Shown: in pieces, positions 551-51,836 of the stretch
Layout: each line of letters starts with the position of its first letter
Numbering within the stretch: the first letter of the stretch is position 1
Origin: Candidatus Dadabacteria bacterium
GTDB lineage: Bacteria; Desulfobacterota_D; UBA1144; Nemesobacterales; CSP1-2
Length of the DNA: 64,000 nucleotides
Direction of reading: 5' to 3'
Assembly (NCBI GenBank): GCA_963805855.1
Contig: CAWDVW010000007.1
Coordinates: forward strand, 391,457-455,456
The notes under the pieces: generated by a model
The model's database searches: none
Told to the model about the DNA's origin: nothing
Seen by the model: only the letters and a program-made list of their open reading frames with translations
Position numbers and translations under genes: made by a program

Positions 551-578
551 GTAGGGAACGCATATATGCGTTCCCTAC
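551..578. repeat. Perfect 28-bp palindrome GTAGGGAACGCATATATGCGTTCCCTAC (REP-like hairpin, 12-bp stem and 4-nt loop), copy 1
   Basis: Read directly in the sequence. The identical sequence recurs at 13642-13669. Variants occur at 32416-32443 (loop GATC) and 7699-7748 (loop replaced by a 26-nt insert). It lies between the gloB stop and the metH start. Confidence 0.9.
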
Positions 579-641: not shown

Positions 642-3600
642 ATGGATCAGAAGCTGGAAACGGAAAAATTCAAAATTCTTCGTCAATTGCTCAGAGAGCG
701 CATCCTCATTATGGATGGCGCAATGGGGACCATGATCCAATCTTACAAACTTGACGAGGCGGATTTTAGAGGTGGAAGATTCAAGGATCATCAGAAGGAC
801 CTGAAGGGCAATAACGACATCTTATGCCTTACAAAACCGGATTTGGTCGAAAAAATACACAGTCAATACCTTGATGCCGGAGCGACAATTATTGAAACGA
901 ACTCATTTAACAGCACCGGAATCTCGCAGTCTGATTATGGGCTTGAAGATATTGTCTATGAGCTCAATAAAGAAGCGGCGAGAATTGCGAGAAAAGCCAT
1001 AGATGAATTCTCCGCGCAAAATCGGGGGCTGAACTGTTTTGTAGCCGGGGCCCTGGGGCCGACAAACAAGACGGCTTCTATGTCTCCGGATGTAAACAAT
1101 CCGGCGTACAGGAATATCACATTCGGTGAACTTTCCGATGCATATTATGAACAAATCAGGGGTCTTGTTGAGGGAGGTGTTGATATCTTACTGGCGGAGA
1201 CTGTATTCGACACGCTAAATGTAAAGGCGGTTATTTTCGCGATTGAAAGGTTCTTTGATGAGCATCATTTTAGATTGCCGGTGATGATTTCGGTGACTAT
1301 TACGGATGCGTCCGGCAGGACCCTTTCAGGACAGACCGTTGAAGCGTTTTGGAACTCAGTCAGGCATGCCAGGCCTCTTTCCGTCGGGATAAACTGTTCA
1401 TTAGGTGCTAAAGAAATGCGTCCGTATATGGATGAGTTGTCCGCTATCGTAGATTGCTACACAAGTTGCTATCCGAATGCCGGACTCCCGAATCCCTTGA
1501 GCGAAACAGGATACGATCAAAGCCCCGAAGAGACCTCCACATTCCTTGAGGAGTTTGCAAAAAGTGGGTTTGTAAATATCGTTGGAGGATGTTGTGGCAC
1601 CACACCGGATCATATTAGTGCAATAGCAACAAAAATCAGGGACATTCCTCCTCGAAAAATACCGATAATCCCTCCCGCTACCCGTCTCAGCGGGTTAGAA
1701 CCCCTGAACATAGTAGAGGATCCGGCTCCATTCGTGTTGATAGGAGAGCGGACAAACGTTACCGGATCTCCACAATTTGCTAACCTCATCAAGGCCGACA
1801 GGTTTGAAGATGCTCTCGGAGTTGCCAAACAACAGGTGGAAAACGGTGCGAATATTCTTGACGTCAACTTTGACGAGGCGTTGCTGGATAGCGGCGCCTG
1901 TATGATACGCTTCCTTAATCTGATCGCGTCCGAACCCGAAATCTCAAAGATTCCTATCATGATAGATAGCTCGAAGTGGTCGGTGATAGAGGCCGGACTT
2001 CAATGCGTACAGGGCAAATGCATAGTCAACTCGATCAGCCTAAAGGAAGGTGAGGAAAAATTTCTGGAACAAGCACGGCTCGTCATGCGTTACGGCGCGG
2101 CTACGATTGTTATGGCATTTGATGAGAAAGGACAGGCTGCCGATAAAAAGGACAAGGTACGAATTTGTCAACGCGCCTACAAGCTCTTAACTGAAAAGGC
2201 AGGGATGGATCCTACGGATATAATCTTCGATCCAAATATCCTGACTGTTGCGACGGGAATTGAAGAGCACAACAACTACGCAGTCGATTTCATCGAATCC
2301 CTCGGAGAAATAAAGGCCACATGCCCAGGGGCCCGCACCAGCGGAGGTGTCAGTAATATATCTTTCTCGTTCCGCGGTAACAATCTAGTCAGGGAGGCCA
2401 TGCACTCTGCCTTTTTGTATCATGCCATAAACGCTGGCCTTGACATGGCGATCGTGAATGCAGGAATGCTAGCAGTCTATGAGGAGATCGACAAAGAGCT
2501 TCTTGAGATGGTCGAAGACGTACTCTTGAACAGGAGAACGGATGGTACCGAGCGACTCGTTGAATACGCGGAGAAAATTAGGGGTACAGAAAAAGCAAGG
2601 CTGAAAGACGAAGAGTCGTGGCGAAAGGGAAGTGTTAAGGAACGGCTATCGCACTCACTCGTTAAAGGAATAGTAGACTTTATTGAGGAGGATACCGAAG
2701 AGGCGCGTACGAAATACGAAAAGCCACTTGACGTTATTGAAGGTCCTCTCATGGACGGTATGAAGATCGTTGGGGAACTATTCGGAGAGGGCAAAATGTT
2801 TCTGCCCCAGGTGGTCAAGAGCGCGAGGGTAATGAAGAAAGCAGTTGCATATCTAGAACCCTTCATGGAGGCCGAAAAGAGAAACGCTAATGATCCCAGA
2901 GCTAAGGGAAAGTTTGTGATCGCAACTGTGAGGGGAGACGTACACGACATCGGGAAGAACATTGTATCGGTTGTCCTGGGTTGTAATAATTACGAGGTAA
3001 TAGATCTCGGTGTGATGGTACCGTGCGATAAAATCCTTCAAACGGCCAAAGAGGTAAATGCCAATATAATTGGAATGAGCGGCTTGATAACACCGTCTCT
3101 TGATGAAATGATCCACAATGCAAAAGAGATGGAGAGGAATGGTTTCGAGGTGCCGCTACTCATAGGGGGTGCTACCACCAGTGACGCACATACAGCTATC
3201 AAGATTGCCCCAAATTATAGTGGACCTACAATACATGTTCTGGACGCATCATTGGTGGTAGGAGTATGCAGCAATCTGATGAATCCGGATAAGCGTAAAG
3301 TCCTTGAAGCAGAAACCATTGCAAAACAAAAGGCAACCAGAGAACAATATGCTGCACTATCCCATAAGAAGCATTTCATACCCATTGATGAAGCCCGTCG
3401 AGAGAAATTCAAAACCAATTGGCAAGACATTCACATAGACGTGCCTAAAAGGCTGCGAATCGAGATATCGAAGGATATACCACTCGAAGAAGTAGTACCC
3501 TATATCGACTGGACTCCGTTCTTCTGGGTATGGGATCTAAAGGGAGTCTATCCGAAGATATTCGAGCATAAAAAGTGGGGGGAGCAGGCGCGGGCTCTTT

Positions 3601-4391
3601 ACAATGACGCTCAAGATTTATTAAAAGAGATCATAGCCGAAAAACGATTCCGGGTGGGAGCGGTGACCGGCATCTGGCCGGCCAACAGCGTAGGGGACGA
3701 CATCGAAGTTTATGTTCATGAAAAGAGTAATAAGATTTTAGGTACATTTCACTTCCTCAGACAGCAGCAGGACGACGCCGATAAACACGTATTTCATAGT
3801 TTGGCGGATTTTATAGCGCCCAAAGGTTCAGGGCGAAATGATTACTTTGGGGGTTTTGTAGTGACTGCCGGTTGGGAAGTGGAGACATTCGCGGCTACCT
3901 TTTCTTCTAAACATGATGACTACCATGCAATTATGGTAAAAGCCCTCGGTGATAGATTTGCTGAGGCGCTGGCGGAATTGATGCATAAACGGGCGCGTGA
4001 TAATTGGGGATTTGGAATGGACGAAGGTCTTACCTACGATGACTTAATAAAGGAAAGGTATAGGGGGATACGTCCGGCGCCGGGTTACCCATCATGTCCT
4101 GATCATACGGAGAAAGCCCTGCTATGGAAGCTACTCAAACCGGATGAAAATATTGGTGTAGTTCTTACTGAAAATTTTGCGATGAATCCACCCAGCTCGG
4201 TTTCTGGTTGGTATATCGCTCACCCGGAAGCTAAGTATTTTCATTTAGGAAAAATAGACCGTGATCAGGTTGAGGATTATGCTAAGAGGAAGAACATGCC
4301 TCTGCATGTCGTTGAAAAATGGCTGCAGCCAAATCTCGGATATGAACCTTCGGAATTCTCACAGCAAATAAAAGTAGCAGGGAAGCCCTAA
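642..4391 (+). CDS. metH: Cobalamin-dependent methionine synthase (1249 aa: Hcy-binding, pterin-binding, B12-binding and AdoMet-activation domains)
   Basis: Full-length MetH architecture. The N-terminus [12 protein letters not shown] is Hcy-methyltransferase-like, GCCGTTP is the Zn-site Cys motif, and a B12-binding region (..[10 protein letters not shown].., GGATTS) precedes the C-terminal activation domain. Confidence 0.95.
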
Positions 4392-4436
4392 ATATTTCTG
4401 GTAATTAAGATAAAGTCGAAAGAGTTATCCGTTTAT

Positions 4437-4838
4437 TCAGCCCTCAGCAGGTAGTACGGAATACTTTCTGAGTATCTCCCGGAGATCTATTGAAAATCTT
4501 GATCTGGGAATTACAAGATCACAACCCGCTCTATCAGCTTCCTTTTTTAATTCGATTTGAACGTGCGATAAAAATCCGATCACTGGAATCTGTTTAAGCT
4601 CACTGCTAGATTTAATGCTTTTTATAATTTCGAGAGGGCTGCCGGCTCTGGAATTGAGATCAAATATGATCAGAGAGGGTTTTTCTGATAATATTTTCTC
4701 TTTAAACCCGTCCGGGGTTTTTACAAATTCCAGGTCTATGTCAAGAGTCTTGGCGGCTTCTCTAATCTTCGACGAGAAGAAGAGATCATCCAATACAGCT
4801 AGAATCTTTTTTCTGTGATTTTTCCTTTCACTAATCAT
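4437..4838 (-). CDS. Single-domain response regulator (CheY-like receiver only)
   Basis: 133 aa. Acidic pocket LAVLDD and phospho-acceptor LIIFDLN are present. No output domain and no kinase gene lies adjacent. Confidence 0.7.
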   Translation of the reverse strand: MISERKNHRKKILAVLDDLFFSSKIREAAKTLDIDLEFVKTPDGFKEKILSEKPSLIIFDLNSRAGSPLEIIKSIKSSSELKQIPVIGFLSHVQIELKKEADRAGCDLVIPRSRFSIDLREILRKYSVLPAEG

Positions 4839-5836: not shown

Positions 5837-6277
5837 ATGAAGACTGCAGGATTAGCCTTACTCGTAGCATCAATATGGGGCATTACGCCAATATTTGAAA
5901 AACTAAGTTTGGAAAGGGCTTCCCCTCTTACCGTGATAACGTTGCGTTTTATATTTACGGCTACGTGTTTTGGCGTTTATTCGGCCATAACGGGAGGGTA
6001 TAAGGATTTCGGCTCTTTAGACGGGAAAACTCTACTCTACATCATTCTTGCCGCCGTTTTCGGCGGCATTATTGGTCTACTCATATTTTTCACCGCGCTC
6101 AAGCAGGATTTTACCACGAAGATAGTACCTATAGCTGCTACTTTCCCACTGTTTACCGCCCTCTATGCCTTTATGTTCCTCAACGAGCATATCTCATCTC
6201 CGAGGCTTGTCGGAATTATCCTCATAGTAATTGGATTGATTCTAGTAAATTGGAATAGCCTTAGCTATTCGGATTAG
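5837..6277 (+). CDS. Small EamA/DMT-family membrane protein (single EamA repeat, about 4 TM)
   Basis: 146 aa, strongly hydrophobic, with EamA-like glycine-rich helices. A good SD GGAGGA lies 5 nt upstream. Confidence 0.6.
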   Translation: MKTAGLALLVASIWGITPIFEKLSLERASPLTVITLRFIFTATCFGVYSAITGGYKDFGSLDGKTLLYIILAAVFGGIIGLLIFFTALKQDFTTKIVPIAATFPLFTALYAFMFLNEHISSPRLVGIILIVIGLILVNWNSLSYSD

Positions 6278-6468
6278 TCATGTTTTTTAGTTTTTCCAAT
6301 ACGAGTAAAGAGTACGAACGCCATGGCCGGTCTTTTCGAGGAATCTCTCATAGCAAATTGAACAGTATCTAATTTCCAGCCCTTATTAACCCACGTATTT
6401 ATCACAGCTTCCAGGTCCTCTGCCGTCACGGTTGCTAATTCTACCACCTTGTAAGTAGTCTTTGTCAT
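6274..6468 (-). CDS. Small DUF4177-like protein
   Basis: 64 aa, [11 protein letters not shown]...KGWKL pattern. It overlaps hemB by 4 nt (translationally coupled). Confidence 0.5.
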
Positions 6469-7472
6469 TGCGCGTGCTTGGAAGAGCCCAATAATCTTGC
6501 GGCTTCCTTGGCAAAATAGGAAATAATGATATCTGCCCCCGCTCTCTTTATGCTAGTTAACATCTCCATAACCACTAGTTTTTCATCTATCCAACCGAGC
6601 CTGCCTGCAGCCTTAACCATCGAATATTCACCACTGACGTTATAGGCGGCAAGCGGATAGTCGAACTCTTCCCTGGCCGCTCTTATAACATCAAGATATG
6701 ACATTGCGGGTTTCACCATCACGATGTCCGCACCCTCCTCAATGTCGAGGGCAATTTCACGCAAAGCCTCTCTAACGTTGGGCGGATCCATCTGATATTC
6801 TTTCCTGTCGCCAAATTCGGGCGAGGACTTCGCAGCCTCTCTAAATGGTCCATAGAATGCGGATGCGTATTTCGCTGAATACGACATTATTGCCGTATCA
6901 ATTAAACCATTCTCGTCCAGTGCGCTTCTAATAGCTCCAACACGGCCGTCCATCATGTCAGACGGGGCGACAATATCAGCCCCAGCCCGTGCATGCGATA
7001 ATGCGATCTGTCCCAGATACTCGAGTGTTTCATCGTTATCCACTTTACCCCCTCTGATTATCCCGCAATGGCCGTGACTGGTATATCCACACATGCAAAT
7101 GTCGGTTATTAGCACGATGCTATCAAACCTCTCCCTTATTTCCCTTAACGCCCTCTGGATAATGCCGTTTTCATCGTAAGCCTCCGATCCCAATTCATCT
7201 TTCAACTCAGGAACCCCAAACAAAAGGATCGCCTTAATTCCAAGTTCCTTTAACTGTTTTATCTCCTTTATTGCATTGTCTATTGACTGTCTGAATATTC
7301 CCGGCATAGAGGTAATCTCCTCTTTAAATCTCTTACCGGGAGCGACGAACATCGGATAGACGAAATCATCCACGCTTAATTTAGTCTCACAAACCATTTC
7401 ACGGATGTGTTTATTTTTCCGCAGTCTTCTTGGACGATAATCAGGGAAGTGCATATTAAATCTGATTCTCAA
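6465..7472 (-). CDS. hemB: Porphobilinogen synthase (delta-aminolevulinate dehydratase)
   Basis: RPRRLR N-terminal motif, Zn-binding Cys cluster [14 protein letters not shown], and the active-site region VMVKPA.... Confidence 0.93.
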
Positions 7473-7698
7473 ATAATCTTATTTTAGATTTCAATATAAC
7501 AAGTTTTTATATTTATGAAAAGGCTTGTATGCGATAAATTAGTCAAGCAATCGCAAAAACAGATTGCCCCCATCACCACCCCGAGTGAAATAGTCCTGTA
7601 ATATTTTCGTTGCACCTGTTCCCGCAATTGTAGATGTTAGATACTGCGAGGATAGTCCCTTAGGTGCTAAATGGGCCTTCAAAAATGCCGACGAATTC

Positions 7699-7748
7699 GT
7701 AGGGAACGCATCCTTCGACCGAGCTCAGGACAGGTCTGCGTTCCCTAC
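7699..7748. repeat. Palindrome copy with a nested insert: GTAGGGAACGCA-[TCCTTCGACCGAGCTCAGGACAGGTC]-TGCGTTCCCTAC
   Basis: Both palindrome arms are intact. The 4-nt loop is replaced by a 26-nt module that also occurs at 13286-13307 and 51556-51578. Confidence 0.85.
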
Positions 7749-7768
7749 ATTTCGCCTCATATAATTTG

Positions 7769-7837
7769 TTGGTAACGCTCTGCTAATGTTAAAGGAGGTT
7801 GCTTCGACCGACAAAGTCAGTCTCGCAATGACATGAG
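7769..7837 (-). repeat. Element-1 repeat copy (TGTCATTGCGAGA...CGAAGCAACCTCC...CATTAGCAGAGCG), reverse orientation, adjacent to the palindrome
   Basis: The reverse complement aligns with copies at 29577-29632, 30048-30100, 30133-30200 and 32464-32530. Confidence 0.8.
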
Positions 7838-8026
7838 AGACCACTTCTACTGGTACCGATCCTTTAAACCTAGCCTGAGACTTATTGATTAAATTAATTC
7901 CTTCTTATTGAAATGCCTTCGTCCATTGAGTTAAATATAGCCTATTGAAAATTTAAAATAAAAAAGGACCAATTATTGGTTTAGTATTTTTTTAAGTCAT
8001 ATTTATCCACATAGAAATAATTCTCG

Positions 8027-9181
8027 ATGAAAGCGAAACATAACGAAAATCGACCCATCGTCGGCATCATAGGCGGAGGGCAGCTCGCCAGGATGACAGC
8101 CATTGCCGCATACAGACTCGGTATAGAAATAGCTATTTTGGACCCCGACATAAAAAGTCCTGCAGGACAAATAGTGCGAAAAATCGTGATTGGATCTATA
8201 AATGATATTAGAACGTTGGAAGAGCTATCCAGAATAAGCAGCTTGATTACACTAGAAAATGAGTTTGTCGATGCACCGTTGCTGGAAAAGATTGAGTCGT
8301 CAGGAGCTATTGTCTTTCCTTCGTCGAAGACCTTAGGATTGATACAGGACAAACTCACCCAAAAGCAGACTTTGGAGTCAAGTATGATAGGGGTTCCAAA
8401 ATTCATGGTGGTGTCGGATGAGAATGATATTCTTGAAGGCGGGAGAAAATATGGATGGCCGGTAATTCTCAAGGTTAGGAGGAACGCGTACGACGGTAGA
8501 GGCAATGAATCGATCAACGGTCCGGATGAGATACATTCGGCATGGAATAACCTTTACGGTGATAAACGTGATTTTATGGTTGAAGAATTTATTAGATTTA
8601 AAAAAGAGCTTGCAATTATGGTTGTAAGAAATACAAAGGGTGAGTCAGCAACATACCCTGTGGTTGAAACCATTCAAAAAGACCACATTTGCCACATAGT
8701 GAGGGCTCCCGCAGGTATCGGTGATGATATTAGTACAAACGCGGCAAATATGGCCAAGAAAGCGATTGAAGCGATTGATGGCATAGGGGTATTCGGAGTT
8801 GAAATGTTCCTCCTGGAAGATGATAGGGTACTCATAAATGAAATTGCTCCACGACCCCACAATTCAGGGCATTACACAATCGAGGCCTGCGTTACATCAC
8901 AATATGAAAATCATTTACGTGCCATTCTGGGTTATCCTTTGGGCTCGACCAGTATGGTGAGTCCCGCAGCCGTGATGGTTAACTTACTCGGCAGCGGCGA
9001 TGGAGAATCAGTTGTTAAGGGACTTGATGAGGCTTTAAAGGTTACAGGCGCTCATATTCATATATACTGTAAGGAGCACACTCGGCCGAATCGTAAGATG
9101 GGTCATCTCACAGTACTGGGGCAAAACATTGAAGAATCGTCCGACAGGGCACTTAAGGCTGCAGGCATGATATCCTTCTGA
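8027..9181 (+). CDS. purK: N5-carboxyaminoimidazole ribonucleotide synthase
   Basis: IVGIIGGGQLARM N-terminus, ATP-grasp fold, and the C-terminal MGHL motif. Confidence 0.92.
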   Translation: MKAKHNENRPIVGIIGGGQLARMTAIAAYRLGIEIAILDPDIKSPAGQIVRKIVIGSINDIRTLEELSRISSLITLENEFVDAPLLEKIESSGAIVFPSSKTLGLIQDKLTQKQTLESSMIGVPKFMVVSDENDILEGGRKYGWPVILKVRRNAYDGRGNESINGPDEIHSAWNNLYGDKRDFMVEEFIRFKKELAIMVVRNTKGESATYPVVETIQKDHICHIVRAPAGIGDDISTNAANMAKKAIEAIDGIGVFGVEMFLLEDDRVLINEIAPRPHNSGHYTIEACVTSQYENHLRAILGYPLGSTSMVSPAAVMVNLLGSGDGESVVKGLDEALKVTGAHIHIYCKEHTRPNRKMGHLTVLGQNIEESSDRALKAAGMISF

Positions 9182-9196
9182 AAAATTTCCAAGGAG

Positions 9197-9703
9197 GTGA
9201 GGGTACACGTGAATCCGTTAATAGGAATAGTTATGGGAAGTGATTCAGATTTGCCGACAATGATAGCCGCATCAAAGGTGTGTGGTGAATTCAATATTCC
9301 ATACGAAATGAGGATTCTGTCTGCCCACCGCACACCCGTAGATATGGCTAAATACGCCCAGGAAGCCCACGTGAGAGGTATTAAGGTGATTATCGCAGGC
9401 GCGGGAGGTGCCGCTCATCTTCCGGGAATGATTGCCGCACATTCACCTCTTCCTGTAATAGGTGTTCCTATCAGTACCGAAGCCCTAAGTGGCCTCGACT
9501 CCCTCTTGTCAATTGTACAGATGCCTAGTGGCGTGCCGGTTGCGACAGTCGCAATCGGGGGCGCGAAGAATGCTGCCCTCTTGGCCATCGAAATCCTTGG
9601 TACGTCGGATAAAAAGATACTTAAGAAGATGATAGATTATAAGCAAAATGCGGCGGAAGAATCGAGACAAAAGAATAAACGCATGCCAAAGAGTAAAAAA
9701 TAA
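9197..9703 (+). CDS. purE: N5-CAIR mutase
   Basis: [12 protein letters not shown] and [10 protein letters not shown] signatures. A GGAGGTGAGG SD lies upstream. It follows purK directly. Confidence 0.93.
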
Positions 9704-9783
9704 TATCCCTGACGTATGATCACGTGCGGGTCTGATTACAAAATCGTACCAGACTGATAATTCAGAACTTATAAGGAACTGCT

Positions 9784-12700
9784 ATGCATTCAAAGCCTAA
9801 GTTTAGAAAGAAGGTAAAACATTTTCAAAGAGTCCTGGTGGCAAATCGAGGAGAGATTGCAATTCGAGTATTTCGCGCGTGCACCGAGCTCGGCATAAAT
9901 ACAGTTGCAATCTATTCTGAAGAGGATTCTTTTTCTCTGCACAGAAGCAAGGCCGACGAAGCCTACTTAATCGGGAAAGACAAGGGTCCGGTCGAGGCGT
10001 ATTTGGATATAGATGGGATTATAAGTCTGGCGATTGAAAAGAATGTTGACGCCATTCATCCCGGATACGGATTCTTATCTGAAAATCCAGATCTCGCTAG
10101 GGCATGTATTGATGCGGGGATATCCTTCATTGGTCCCCCTCCAGAGGTGACTGAGCTGATGGGCGATAAGGCGGCAGCGAGGAGATTGGCCACCAGGTCG
10201 GGGGTACCTATCGTTCCCGGAACAGAGGGATTTGTGGAAAATGATGAACAAGCTATCAAGTTTTCAAGAGGCGCCGGGTTCCCGGTGATTATAAAGGCTG
10301 CCCACGGCGGGGGAGGCAGGGGAATTAGAATCAACTATGATCAAAAGTCTCTGATAGAGAACCTTCCACAGGCTAGGTCAGAGGCGAAGGCGGCATTCGG
10401 AAGTGATGCCGTACTACTAGAAAAATACATTGAAAATCCAAAACATGTAGAAGTGCAGGTCCTGGGTGATCAATACGGTAACGTGATTCATTTATTTGAA
10501 CGCGACTGTTCCGTTCAAAGAAGACATCAGAAGGTGACGGAACTGGCGCCCGCATTAACGCTTGACCGTGATTTTAAGGAGAGGATTTATGATGCGGCTC
10601 TCCGATTATCTAATGCCGCGAATTATACAAGTGCGGGCACGGTTGAATTTTTAGTCGACCTAAAGGGAAATTTCTATTTTATCGAGATGAACACCCGCAT
10701 CCAGGTAGAACACACCGTCACAGAACTGATTACCGGTGTGGATCTTGTCCAAGCCCAGATACGAATTGCAGAAGGTCATAGATTGCACGACCCCCAAACA
10801 GGGATTCCCAGGGGTTCCGCGTTAAGATGTAACGGATATGCGCTACAGTGCCGCATTACTACAGAAGATCCGACAAATAACTTTACCCCTGATATAGGTC
10901 GATTAATTGCGTATCGGTCCCCCGGTGGATTCGGAATAAGGCTTGATGCCGCCAGTGCCTATGTAGGTGCCGCGATCACGCCGTATTACGATTCCATGCT
11001 GGTAAAAGTTACCTCTTGGGGTTTAACATTTGATCAGTGTGTCAAGAAGATGGATAGGGCGCTGCAAGAGTTTCGCATCCGAGGGGTTAAAACAAATATC
11101 CCTTTCCTGATTAAGCTGATCAGGCATCCTGTGTTCAAAAGAGGGGAATGCACAACGAGTTTTCTCCAGGATCACCCGGAAGTCTTTGACATAAAGGAAC
11201 CACGGGACAGGGCTACCAGGCTTTTGAACTTTATTGGAGATGTCACTATAAACCAATCCCTTAAGAAGCCCAAGACCTGGGAAGAACATCCACCCCTAAG
11301 ACCGATTTTACCGTCAACAGACCACAACAGGTCAGTGGTTCCTGAACACAGACAGGTTTTTGACCGGGAGGGTCCGGAGGGATTATCAAAGTGGATTTTG
11401 AAACAAAAACGTTTGCTTGTGACAGACACGACATTTCGCGATGCTCATCAATCTCTGCTCGCGACGCGACTGAGAACCTATGATATGCATAATATCGCAA
11501 AGGCAACTGGCCATTTGGGGAGAAATATTTATTCATTCGAGATGTGGGGTGGGGCGACATTCGACGTATGTCTGAGATTTCTCAAAGAATGCCCCTGGAA
11601 CCGAGTTTCAAAGCTCCGGGAATCTATGCCTCACGCCATCCTCCAAATGCTGCTCCGCGGCGCTAATGCTGTCGGATATGCCAACTACCCGGATAATATC
11701 GTAAGAGAATTCATAAGAGAGGCAGCAAGGTGTGGGATAGACCTATTCAGAATCTTTGATTGCTTCAATTGGATCCCGAATATGAAGGTTTCAATAGAAA
11801 CGGCCCTTGACACAGGCAAGATAGTTGAAGCAGCAATATGTTATTCAGGAGATATTACCGACCCAAAACGGGATAAATACACGCTTAAGTACTACGTAGA
11901 TCTCGCGAGGGAACTTTCGAAAATGCATGTCCACCTTATCGCGATCAAGGATATGGCCGGACTATGTAAACCCTTTGCGGCGGAAAAGCTGGTCCGCGCT
12001 ATAAAAGAAGAAACGGGGCTCCCCTTGCATTTTCACACACATGCGACCAGCGGAAACGGGGAGGCAACAGTTCTCAAAGCTGCCGAAGCAGGCGCGGACA
12101 TTGTTGATTCGGCCATCAGCTCATTATCTGGACTGACCTCTCAGCCTAGTTTAAATGCGGTTGTCGCTGCCCTGGAAGGAACTGAGCGGGACACGTTGAT
12201 CGATGTAAAGGACTTAAACAAACTCTCAACATACTGGGAGGCGGTCAGAGGCTATTATGCGCCATTTGAAGGGGATATGAAATCTTCCAATGCAGATGTG
12301 TATCTATACGAAATCCCAGGCGGTCAATACACAAACCTGCGTTCACAGGCCCAATTGCTTGGATTAGGAGATAGGTGGGAAGATATAAAACAGATGTACG
12401 CCGAGGCAAATAAACTCTTTGGCGATATCATTAAGGTGACTCCATCTTCAAAGGCGGTGGGGGACATGGCCCTATTTTTGGTTCAGAACGATCTCAAACC
12501 AGATGATGTTATAGAGAAAGCCGACCAATTGACCTTTCCCAAATCTGTTATCGATATGATGGAGGGACACCTCGGGCAGACCCTGGGAGGATTTCCTCCT
12601 GACATTCAAAAGGCTATTTTAAGAGATAAAACACCGATAAATGTAAGACCAGGGGAGTTAATCCCACCGGCAGATTTCAATGGCAACAGAAAGAGATTAG

Positions 12701-13263: not shown

Positions 13264-13276
13264 AGTGATACGTATG

Positions 13277-13334
13277 GAACACATATCCTTCGACTACGCT
13301 CAGGACAGGTATGCGTTCCCAGGTTTTGTTTTTC
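13277..13334 (+). terminator. Rho-independent terminator for pyc, built from a degenerate palindrome/insert repeat copy
   Basis: Stem GGAACACATATCC ... GGTATGCGTTCC around a loop containing TCCTTCGACTACGCTCAGGACAG. It is followed by CAGGTTTTGTTTTTC, 14 nt after the stop codon. Confidence 0.6.
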
Positions 13335-13641
13335 AATAGATCAGGTTAACCATCGAGTATTTGAATCAGTCTACAAAATTAGCAATTAACTATTTTTCTA
13401 TAGTATTCCTTACTACTCGTACCGATATTAGTCAGATTTTCTATATCGGCTTCCCATTTTAGTGGATTATATCTGATATATTCCCTGATTTTGTTAAAGC
13501 TTCTTTCGGTTCTGATTATATGATCGTAGAATGATTTTTGCCATTGAAATTTACTATGTTCGCATGAATACCTGATTTTACGGGTAACAGATGATTTGTA
13601 TTATTGTACTATAGTCGATAATAGCATCTTTGTCCTGTTGG

Positions 13642-13669
13642 GTAGGGAACGCATATATGCGTTCCCTAC
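13642..13669. repeat. Perfect 28-bp palindrome GTAGGGAACGCATATATGCGTTCCCTAC, copy identical to 551-578
   Basis: Exact match. It lies between the convergent pyc and ICMT-methyltransferase genes and is a candidate bidirectional terminator hairpin. Confidence 0.9.
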
Positions 13670-29451: not shown

Positions 29452-29576
29452 TATTTCAGTACTACTCCACTTTTTATGGTTTTTATCAAATCAAGTATAA
29501 CTAATTATTATTTGTCGGTTAAATTCAAATGAATAACCCTTGGGTAGGTTATCAAAACATAAAAACGCCTGAACCG

Positions 29577-29632
29577 TCATTGCGAGAAACGTTGTGCTTC
29601 GAAGCAATATCCTTCGGCATTGGCAGAGCGTT
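29577..29632 (+). repeat. Element-1 repeat copy (GTCATTGCGAGAAACG..TGCTTCGAAGCA..CGAAGCAATATCC..CATTGGCAGAGCGTT)
   Basis: Member of a family of six or more copies. It contains the internal palindrome TGCTTCGAAGCA. Confidence 0.8.
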
Positions 29633-29819: not shown

Positions 29820-30038
29820 CTTTCATTTTCTTTGTCTTGATACAAAGAAACAAAAATCAAGGGCTTACAAAAAATTAGGAATTATTAAATCAATTCCTCC
29901 AGCTAAAAATATTTAATCCAACCACAACCCCAAATCTTTTTTTAACGCTGGAGGAATTGATTTTGGCAATTTTTTGAATGCCCGTTTAAGAACTAAGATA
30001 CTGTCCCCGAATTACGTAACATCTACAGCAATGACAGG
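29820..30038. repeat. Copy 1 of a ~220-310 bp mosaic intergenic repeat unit (hairpin CTTTGTCTTGATACAAAG; CAAGGGCTTACAAAAAAT; TTTTTAACGCTGGAGGAATTGATTTTGGCAATTTTTTGAATGCCCGTTTAA; ACATCTACAGCAATGACAGG)
   Basis: Same module order as 51525-51836 (219 versus 312 nt, the difference being indels between modules). It contains a 17-bp perfect inverted repeat, AAATCAATTCCTCCAGC at 29887-29903 versus GCTGGAGGAATTGATTT at 29947-29963. Confidence 0.75.
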
Positions 30039-30132: not shown

Positions 30133-30200
30133 TGTCATTGCGAGAAATCCCGAGCCAGATCGAAGGGCACGAAGCAATCTCCTAAAACATTGGCAGAGCG
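30133..30200 (+). repeat. Element-1 repeat copy (TGTCATTGCGAGAAATC...CGAAGCAATCTCCTAAAACATTGGCAGAGCG)
   Basis: Best-conserved copy. Together with 29577 and 30048 it forms a same-orientation three-copy cluster in the 818-bp gap upstream of the fetAB 3' end. Confidence 0.8.
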
Positions 30201-32415: not shown

Positions 32416-32443
32416 GTAGGGAACGCAGATCTGCGTTCCCTAC
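32416..32443. repeat. Palindrome variant GTAGGGAACGCAGATCTGCGTTCCCTAC (loop GATC)
   Basis: The arms are identical to the copies at 551 and 13642; only the loop differs. It is followed by ACATTT...TTGGTAAC and an Element-1 copy, the same arrangement as at 7699-7837. Confidence 0.9.
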
Positions 32444-32463
32444 ATTTTTTTACATATAGTTTA

Positions 32464-32530
32464 TTGGTAACACTCTGCCTAGCGTGGAGTAGATTGCTTC
32501 GGAAAAAGCGTTTCTCGCAATGACAGTAAA
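32464..32530 (-). repeat. Element-1 repeat copy (reverse orientation), followed by a partial second copy at 32553-32595
   Basis: The reverse complement is CTGTCATTGCGAGAAACGC...CGAAGCAATCTACTCC...GGCAGAGTGTTACCAA. The partial copy is CAATGCTCTGCTAATGTTGAAGGAGAATGCTTC. Confidence 0.8.
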
Positions 32531-51524: not shown

Positions 51525-51836
51525 TATTTACTTTGTCTTGATGCAAAGTAACAACCCTTCGACTGTGCTCAGGACAAGGGCTAACAAAAAATGCTTGCGT
51601 ATCGAGCGAATGCGAGATATCAATTGCTAAAATATTTAATTAGTTCTCTCAGTCACTTTGTTCCTTCGAGAGATGACAGTAATGATCGTCACTTTTTTTA
51701 ACGCTTCCGGAATTGATTTTGGTAATTTTTTGAATGCCCATTTAAACCAATTCAATTGGGCGAAGGTTCAGGAAATAGTGCGTTAAAAATTAAGATGTTA
51801 TCCACAAATAATGTGACATCTCCAGCAATGACTGCG
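51525..51836. repeat. Copy 2 of the ~220-310 bp mosaic intergenic repeat unit (CTTTGTCTTGATGCAAAG; CAAGGGCTAACAAAAAAT; TTTTTAACGCTTCCGGAATTGATTTTGGTAATTTTTTGAATGCCCATTTAA; ACATCTCCAGCAATGACTGCGG)
   Basis: Module order and sequence match 29820-30038. It additionally carries the TCCTTCGACTGTGCTCAGGACAAGG module seen inside the palindrome at 7711-7736. Confidence 0.75.

Follow-up and report, generated by a model that had tools for sequence, protein, structure and literature searches.

Composite repeat in the hemB-purK spacer

The 64,000-nucleotide stretch of the Candidatus Dadabacteria contig CAWDVW010000007.1 analysed here (hereafter the window) carries hemB (6465-7472, - strand) and purK (8027-9181, + strand) in divergent orientation, separated by a spacer of 554 bp. 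Within this spacer, at 7699-7748, lies a composite repeat that reads GTAGGGAACGCA / TCCTTCGACCGAGCTCAGGACAGGTC / TGCGTTCCCTAC. Two perfect, complementary 12-nt arms of a palindrome surround an insert of 26 nt, in the position where the palindrome usually has a 4-nt loop, and the sequence thus confirms an earlier note on this DNA, which had described intact arms and a loop replaced by a short module. The window holds five copies of the palindrome, filled and empty (Table 1), and all of its repeat copies are intergenic or lie within a pseudogene. We consider it reasonably probable that the insert is a solo hairpin of the type associated with GIY-YIG nuclease genes, which spread non-autonomously and landed at the apex of a palindrome of the repetitive extragenic palindrome (REP) type.

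The discrete inner unit is 22-24 nt long and has the form (T)CCTTCGAC-N2-3-GCTCAGGACARG. Its core, CCTTCGAC-N3-GCTCAGGACA, has three exact matches in the window, at 7712, 13287, and 51556, all on the + strand, and allowing up to three mismatches adds no further match there. The earlier note had placed the same module at 13286-13307 and, without palindrome arms, at 51556-51578, and both copies are found again. Its reservation that the core might be too degenerate to be told from chance does not hold, with an expectation of 0.03 matches and no set of three in 100 shuffles. Between the module and the right arm, the TC dinucleotide at 7735-7736 is probably the leftover half of a GATC loop.

Independent occurrence of the two repeats

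The outer repeat is a perfect 28-bp palindrome, GTAG-GGAACGCA-N4-TGCGTTCC-CTAC, and the whole 28-mer is palindromic because the loop tetranucleotides are themselves self-complementary. A pattern scan of genome stretches, with a gap of 0-30 nt allowed, yielded about 126 copies in at least 118 stretches. These span many phyla and include Candidatus Poribacteria, Thermodesulfobacteriota, Aminicenantes, Patescibacteria, Elusimicrobiota, Clostridia, Spirochaetes, Dadabacteria, and others. Among the matches listed, the loop is GATC in 79, TATA in 22, and AATT in 6 cases, with a few variants; none of these matches holds the module, and none of the listed loci overlaps the window. Nearly all loops of these loci (L072-L189; comparison loci are denoted by L numbers) are self-complementary tetranucleotides, and the commonest, GATC, coincides with the Dam methylation site.

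The 18 fixed bases of the module match exactly 74 times in 71 loci of viral contigs, whose flanks and G+C contents are wholly dissimilar, and the consensus of these copies runs on to ...GGACAGGC. At up to three mismatches, the module was not found in the 909 kb of listed palindrome stretches, and the palindrome was not found in the viral-contig collection. A scan of the viral contigs for the exact composite returned 23 matches, all of them chance hits in unrelated sequence. Each repeat therefore occurs without the other, since the palindrome is listed unfilled, the module sits in viral loci, and neither set holds the other. Their pairing is confined to the window's own lineage. These distributions bear out the earlier suggestion of two independent modules, which may be mobile or recombining, as was also suggested. 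In the viral contigs L009, L013, L023, L030, L036, L060, and L068, the module often breaks short tandem repeats, for example GGGCAAAC heptamers.

REP-like nature of the outer palindrome

The REP sequences that REP-associated tyrosine transposases (RAYTs) recognise carry a characteristic GTAG at their 5′ end. The start of a RAYT-like pseudogene at 13382-13669 coincides exactly with the empty palindrome at 13642-13669, which is read there as VGNAYMRSL. Its homologues are full-length open reading frames (ORFs) of about 190 aa in six palindrome loci from at least five phyla, and each of them includes the palindrome directly past an H-x-H-G-I motif. A TATA loop gives the translation VGNA-YM-RSL and a GATC loop VGNA-DL-RSL; since the reading changes with the loop, the palindrome is conserved as DNA and not as protein. 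The ORF of L125 scores 25.5 bits with Pfam Y1_Tnp (cut-off 23) and 57.8 bits with NCBIfam REP_Tyr_transpos (REP-associated tyrosine transposase), the latter below the family cut-off of 80. Copies in or against RAYT-like ORFs occur in L109, L117, L125, L139, L175, and L181, besides the window pseudogene. Among the 126 listed palindromes, 7 are in or against such an ORF and 114 have none in their 8-kb locus, which is the ratio of solo copies to genes expected of a REP family.

We thus regard the outer repeat as a REP-like, RAYT-associated element whose master copy is, unusually, intragenic. It resembles REP sequences, RAYTs, and bacterial interspersed mosaic elements (BIMEs), which are said to have been described by Nunvar in 2010 and Ton-Hoang in 2012, in its GTAG start, stable hairpin, intergenic dispersal, membership of mosaic units, and link to a Y1-transposase-like gene. 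In contrast to them, it is a perfect 28-bp palindrome with GTAG on both strands, lies inside the transposase-like ORF past the HUH motif and not only beside it, and occurs as identical copies across many phyla, with an NCBIfam score under the cut-off. In L111 (a Spirochaetes metagenome-assembled genome (MAG), ~6080-6170), two extra left arms with a spacer (GTAGGGAACGCAATCCCCG) precede a complete palindrome, which may represent a tandem or nested arrangement.

Structural relationship of the module to GIY-YIG gene cassettes

The site downstream of pyc is syntenic in two relatives and appears in three states. In L190 it reads GTAGGGAACGCATAAATGCGTTCCCTGT, the palindrome only, and in the window the same palindrome holds the 24-nt module between TA and TA. 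In L193 the arms and junctions are identical, and the module is split after nucleotide 14 by about 715 bp (first 14 nt, TCCTTCGACTAAGC; last 9 nt, CAGGACAGG). This segment encodes a 96-aa GIY-YIG protein (PF01541, 71 bits), and a perfect 30-bp inverted repeat, CCGTTCACACTGAGTTCATCGAAGTGTGAA and its complement, encloses the gene. Each half of the repeat is a hairpin of the module design, with a stem, the loop TCGAY-N2-3-RCTC, and a complementary stem. For L193, later insertion into a module that already existed is the best reading. The reverse order, in which the 24-nt module arose by deletion from an L193-like cassette, was rejected because a consensus known from more than 70 unrelated contexts would then have had to re-form by chance.

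In a metagenome scan with the L193 protein, the loci of the best 80 of 510 relatives were analysed. An exact flanking inverted repeat of 12-35 nt is present in 45 of the 80, nearly always with the same motif, such as CCGTTCGTCCTGAGCTTGTCGAAGGATGAAC, which includes TCCTTCGAC..GCTCAGGA, the core of the window module in reverse complement. Several loci hold TCCTGAGC..GTCGAAGGA, likewise the reverse complement of that core. The hairpin motif is dense near the gene (0.9 per kb up to a distance of 200 nt) and sparse more than 1 kb away (0.13 per kb), and 104 of 141 motif copies are in the canonical inverted orientation. Thirty-four cassettes of 330-800 bp are bounded by CCGTTCG...CGAACGG.

Covariation defines the stem of this hairpin. 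In 170 instances gathered regardless of pairing, stem pairs 2-4 are Watson-Crick in 82-91%, with double-sided exchanges (pair 2, C-G 124 and G-C 28; pair 3, C-G 105, G-C 32, and T-A 5; pair 4, C-G 67 and T-A 67). When the partner is slid by 1-2 columns as a control, pairing ranges from 4% to 78%; most of it is lost at pairs 1, 3, and 4, and pair 2 still reaches 78% at +1. Besides the covarying 4-bp stem, members of the family have in common the loop TCGAC-N2-3-GCTC and a 3′ tail, both conserved. The window module differs from the family consensus chiefly in the tail, which is CAGG and not CGAACGG, and a GGACAGG tail variant is found beside GIY-YIG genes. These data show that hairpins of the module family form the ends of GIY-YIG gene cassettes and that discrete solo units of the family exist as well.

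Hairpin apexes occupied by the module

The comparison of empty with filled sites, proposed in the earlier note, reveals two pairs in the window and one in an unrelated contig. The filled copy at 7699-7806 corresponds to the empty one at 32416-32501, the right flanks being ~76% identical over ~130 nt past the palindrome, and the unit at 51526-51745, with the module, corresponds to that at 29825-29989, without it. In the viral contig L022, a filled copy of a different GTAG...CTAC palindrome lies at 2185-2236 (GTAGGGGCGCAATA / TCCTTCGACTTCGCTCAGGACAAG / TATTGCGCCCCTAC) and an empty copy at 3490-3517.

Perfect flanking arms of at least 8 bp are found for 3 of 70 distinct module copies, compared with 0.14% of control positions, and three different palindromes hold the module at their exact centre. 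The loop of the module itself is occupied in other cases. Beside GIY-YIG genes, a second module occupies exactly the variable N2-3 stretch in a module loop in 6 distinct cases, and 2 further cases have the GGACAGG variant in the loop of an oppositely oriented module. In the window, a module-like hairpin lies in the loop of an NTS-like hairpin at 30134-30177 (30149-30167, CCC-GAGCCAGATCGA-AGGG, in reverse orientation), and its three paralogues at 29576-29607, 32494-32524, and 7799-7832 are unfilled. The ends of the inserted unit, (T)CC...CARG, are constant across contexts (the window twice, L022, L038, L224, and L250). Units and cassettes hence repeatedly occupy hairpin apexes, and apex nesting is recurrent but not the rule. 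The idea that a hairpin loop serves as the insertion target agrees with these cases, and the insertion of tiny repeats into hairpin loops is supported, not proved. In the relative L274 (~9560-9610), the loop of an NTS-like hairpin GTCATTGCGAGC...CGAAGCAATCTCC is enlarged and includes ...GCGAACGG..., the tail motif of the GIY-YIG-associated hairpins, and this may be another nesting case.

Comparison with known repeat systems

Among published systems, the Ssn enzymes and their repeats come closest. These single-domain GIY-YIG nucleases of ~94 aa (CDD cd10448) recognise a hairpin repeat only when the DNA is single-stranded, and they cleave one strand only, directly upstream of the repeat (Chenal et al. 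2025, Nat Commun 16:2388, PMC11893778). As a rule, Ssn-related motifs (SRM) stand on either side of such a gene, and SRM copies are also scattered in their hundreds; the systems include the Neisseria NTS repeat, and the degenerate SRM was given as HGTCWYN(0-2)YYVSBRHN(0-5)WNVSBRGN(0-2)RNCYNB (PMC11893778). The layout of repeat, gene, and repeat was likened to an insertion sequence, IS200/IS605, RAYT, REP, and BIME, and mobility was just hypothesised (PMC11893778). The cassettes described here share with this system the ~95-aa GIY-YIG gene between inverted hairpin repeats, an architecture like that of an insertion sequence, and the dispersal of hairpins as many solo intergenic copies whose orientation is set by asymmetric conserved parts. 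At 22-24 nt and with a covarying stem, the module falls within the 20-50 nt of SRM hairpin repeats, and flanking genes are found for the motif family, the window copies being solo. However, the hairpin type, CCGTTCG-stem-GAGC-N2-3-GTCGA-stem′, lies outside the published SRM sequence, and neither apex nesting nor the states of one site with and without an insert appear in that paper (PMC11893778).

Tiny nested repeats have a precedent in Nostoc. The small dispersed repeats SDR1-8 of heterocyst-forming cyanobacteria, attributed to Elhai et al. in 2008, are reportedly 21-27 nt long and nested in other repeats and in tandem repeats. A hairpin with compensatory changes is said to have been predicted for them, with confinement to Nostocaceae and no enzyme proposed. 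By this description, the module is alike in its size of 22-24 nt, its nesting in palindromes, hairpins, and tandem repeats, and its stem covariation, whereas it occurs in a Thermodesulfobacteriota-like genome and many unrelated contigs. The closest relatives of purK are metagenome proteins with 83-94% identity, the named ones being from Thermodesulfobacteriota MAGs, and this rules out a cyanobacterial origin of the window. Look-ups of the exact purK and pyc proteins gave no match.

Some insertion sequences, among them IS1397 and ISKpn1, choose the loops of REP or palindromic units as targets; they are reportedly the subject of work by Tobes and Pareja from 2006. Elements of this type are full insertion sequences of >1 kb with DDE transposases and target duplications. 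They have in common with the module the specific insertion at the central loop of a REP-type hairpin, whereas the insert here is 22-24 nt long, non-coding, and without duplication. The earlier note had likened the pattern to nested miniature inverted-repeat transposable elements (MITEs). The module is short, non-coding, dispersed, sometimes nested, and related to the ends of a longer gene-carrying unit, as MITEs are; it differs from them in being about one-tenth of the typical size. No target-site duplication was found at the junctions, where the TATA centre reads TA/unit/TA and the empty copies are 28 nt and not 26, and the module has no real terminal inverted repeats, its sole internal inverted repeat being the 4-bp stem. 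For these two reasons, the module is not a classical MITE. A likeness to intron insertion finds no counterpart in Rfam either: at the gathering score, no family was detected in the window, L190, or L193, without any intron or ribozyme signal, and at E values up to 10 the L193 insert gave chance-level matches only.

The components are of known kinds, namely REP/RAYT-like palindromes and Ssn/SRM-like hairpins. The hairpin type, its link to GIY-YIG cassettes, and the comparative evidence for apex nesting appear to be new.

Relatives of the locus and other repeats of the window

The hemB-purK spacer measures 554-976 bp among close relatives; ~100-130 nt at each gene-proximal end are conserved, and each relative has a different set of hairpin repeats between them. 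The spacers of L190, L192/L193, L274, L275, and L280 are too rearranged to present an empty 7699 site, and only L281, whose purK is 94% identical, aligns. There the site holds a diverged and further rearranged composite, and since this composite has already diverged, the insertion at 7699 is old. The window copies are most likely old, inert footprints with no effect on the adjacent genes.

A second hairpin family in the window, GTCATTGCGAG...CGAAGCAATC, has 4 copies against 0 expected. It is similar in outline to the Neisseria NTS (CGTCATTCCCGCG...GCGGGAATC), and it does not fit the published SRM pattern. A larger mosaic unit (...CTTTTTTTAACGCT..GGAATTGATTTTGG.AATTTTTTGAATGCCC.TTTAA) occurs twice in the window, at 29825-29989 and 51526-51745. 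By eye, a very similar stretch is present in the hemB-purK spacer of L280 (~6870-6950); since it is missing from the window's own spacer, the unit shifts its location between relatives.

Table 1 Coordinates of the repeats and associated features in the window and in comparison loci.
Locus	Feature	Position	Strand	Remarks
Window	Empty palindrome, loop TATA	551..578	.
Window	hemB-purK spacer	7473-8026
Window	REP-like palindrome, left arm, filled copy	7699..7710	+	GTAGGGAACGCA
Window	24-nt module TCCTTCGACCGAGCTCAGGACAGG	7711..7734	+	Stem TCCT/AGGA, loop TCGAC-CGA-GCTC, tail CAGG
Window	TC dinucleotide	7735..7736	+	Compare empty paralogue 32416-32443
Window	REP-like palindrome, right arm	7737..7748	+	TGCGTTCCCTAC
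Window	Rest of mosaic unit	7749..7835	.	Common with 32444-32524; NTS-like hairpin GTCATTGCGAG...CGAAGCAA at its end, 7799-7832 (-)
Window	NTS-like hairpin of second family	7799-7832	-
Window	Degenerate left arm and half loop, second filled palindrome	13272..13285	+	GTATGGAACACA-TA
Window	24-nt module TCCTTCGACTACGCTCAGGACAGG	13286..13309	+	At TA/TA centre
Window	Half loop and degenerate right arm	13310..13323	+	TA-TGCGTTCCCAGG
Window	Truncated RAYT-like (Y1 transposase) pseudogene	13382..13669	-	In-frame stop, N-terminal half missing
Window	Empty palindrome, loop TATA	13642-13669		At start of RAYT-like pseudogene
Window	NTS-like hairpin of second family	29576-29607	+
Window	NTS-like hairpin of second family, GTCATTGCGAG...CGAAGCAA	30134..30177	+	Module-like hairpin in loop
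Window	Empty palindrome, loop GATC	32416..32443	.	Paralogue of filled 7699-7748
Window	NTS-like hairpin of second family	32494-32524	-
Window	Module copy CCCTTCGACTGTGCTCAGGACAAG without palindrome arms	51555..51578	+	Inside mosaic unit; paralogous unit 29825-29989 without module
L190	hemB-purK spacer	1275-1891
L192	hemB-purK spacer	9251-10000
L274	hemB-purK spacer	9025-10000
L275	hemB-purK spacer	3804-4464
L280	hemB-purK spacer	6645-7260
L109	RAYT-like ORF with palindrome	6218-6802
L125	RAYT-like ORF with palindrome	1924-2502
L139	RAYT-like ORF with palindrome	7026-7613
L175	RAYT-like ORF with palindrome	6114-6764
L181	RAYT-like ORF with palindrome	4014-4532

Proposed mechanism and alternatives

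The interpretation given in the earlier note is supported in its essentials, and for the manner in which the module inserts we infer the following steps. The solo units would be non-autonomous derivatives of GIY-YIG cassettes that spread while the DNA is single-stranded, for example during replication or DNA uptake. The nuclease would supply the nicks, and host functions would do the joining, an assignment made because strand transfer is not known for GIY-YIG nucleases. As its landing site, the unit would favour the apex exposed by hairpin extrusion, and no target duplication would result. In a stronger version, the Ssn-type cassettes and the 22-24-nt solo hairpins would both be genuine mobile DNA, integrating without target duplication where an extruded hairpin offers a single-stranded apex (at REP centres and in sister-hairpin loops). 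We regard this version as possible, and doubtful rather than likely.

Several observations weigh against the proposed landing of a GIY-YIG-type unit at the palindrome apex. The joining step is unexplained by a GIY-YIG nuclease. No Ssn-like gene was detected in the 64-kb window by tblastn and profile hidden Markov models; the relative L193 encodes a GIY-YIG protein that is probably of this type. In the palindrome loci and viral module loci, the only Ssn homologue is a distant one in L007, 2.6 kb from a module, and just 1 of the 71 viral module loci has such a gene nearby. The published SRM pattern has no match on either strand of the window, the three module sites included, and the nearest solved structures to the L193 protein are those of the UPF0213 proteins 1zg2 and 1ywl. 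Only ~4% of module copies lie in long palindromes. In the 34 cassettes, the outer flanks pair over at most 5 bp and offer no palindromic targets, and a general insertion of cassettes into palindromes is ruled out on this ground. Folding, which the earlier note had proposed as a check, gives a divided answer. The composite 7699-7748 folds stably as single-stranded DNA (-14.2 kcal/mol, z = -5), as does the unfilled palindrome (-13.1 kcal/mol, z = -8), but the module alone folds at -0.3 to -0.9 kcal/mol, like shuffles. Since its solo fold is no better than that of shuffles, the module hairpin is backed by covariation and not by energy. Finally, the empty state of L190 need not predate an insertion, as recombination between the palindromes on either side of the RAYT-like pseudogene could have produced it; it is ambiguous because a crossover between the left arms of these window palindromes yields exactly the L190 state.

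This last point belongs to the main rival, in which no transposition takes place and BIME-like mosaics are shuffled by homologous or microhomology recombination, gene conversion, or template switching at hairpins. A crossover between the right arms of the window arrangement would likewise yield a single filled palindrome of the L193 type, and all three states after pyc are thus derivable from that arrangement by arm-to-arm crossovers. The palindrome is also the first module of a ~135-nt mosaic at 7699-7835 and 32416-32524 that recurs in L281, the hemB-purK spacers differ in their repeat sets from relative to relative, and the junction at 7711 shows a possible CA/CAG microhomology. However, shuffling does not account well for identical unit ends in unrelated hosts or for a unit at the exact centre of three different palindromes, and the spread of one discrete 22-24-nt unit through phyla and viral contigs calls for more than recombination between dispersed repeats. 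We judge it unlikely as the sole explanation, and it may act alongside the favoured mechanism.

An improbable reading is that the module is a Nostoc-type small dispersed repeat moved by an RNA intermediate or an enzyme unrelated to the GIY-YIG nuclease, its link to GIY-YIG genes being secondary and due to shared junk regions. The size of 22-24 nt, the nesting in other repeats and short tandem repeats, and the lack of a nearby nuclease gene for most solo copies would suit such a repeat. Yet in most loci the oriented inverted repeats stand directly around the GIY-YIG genes and are not merely near them, the host is not a cyanobacterium, and no structured-RNA family of Rfam was matched.

The least probable reading, which we rate as very improbable, takes the composite as a selected functional hairpin (a pyc terminator, an mRNA stabiliser, or a regulatory site between hemB and purK) with the insert as a tolerated or useful loop variant: the filled copy at 13272-13323 does begin 9 nt past the pyc stop codon and is followed by TTTTGTTTTT, and the composite at 7699 folds stably, but the sequences of relatives are quite different at both sites, the decayed arms at 13272 give only a weak fold (-5.6 kcal/mol, z = -1.2), and the unit is present in more than 70 unrelated contexts. 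A simple terminator scan had no match at 13272-13323, though it is by design blind to loops as long as 24 nt. The earlier description of this site as a pyc terminator hairpin thus stands as to the module in a hairpin after pyc, and the terminator role is not established.

Implications

One palindrome centre is seen here in three states: unoccupied, occupied by a solo 24-nt hairpin, and occupied by such a hairpin that itself encloses a nuclease-gene segment. The mobility of Ssn systems was only hypothesised in 2025, and the locus gives comparative evidence in that direction, as does the recurrence of apex nesting in unrelated genomes. If the units are true mobile DNA, they would be among the smallest mobile elements of bacteria and would supply the missing enzyme for small dispersed repeats of the type attributed to Elhai. 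Repeat-derived spurious peptides of the PFDFAQDRL and FDKLRANG types, which occur in many genome annotations, would then be explained, and annotators could recognise a common source of spurious ORFs. If confirmed, the apex landing described here would provide a hairpin-loop landing rule for a class of very small mobile DNA, and REP/RAYT and Ssn/SRM repeats would be layers of one intergenic ecosystem.

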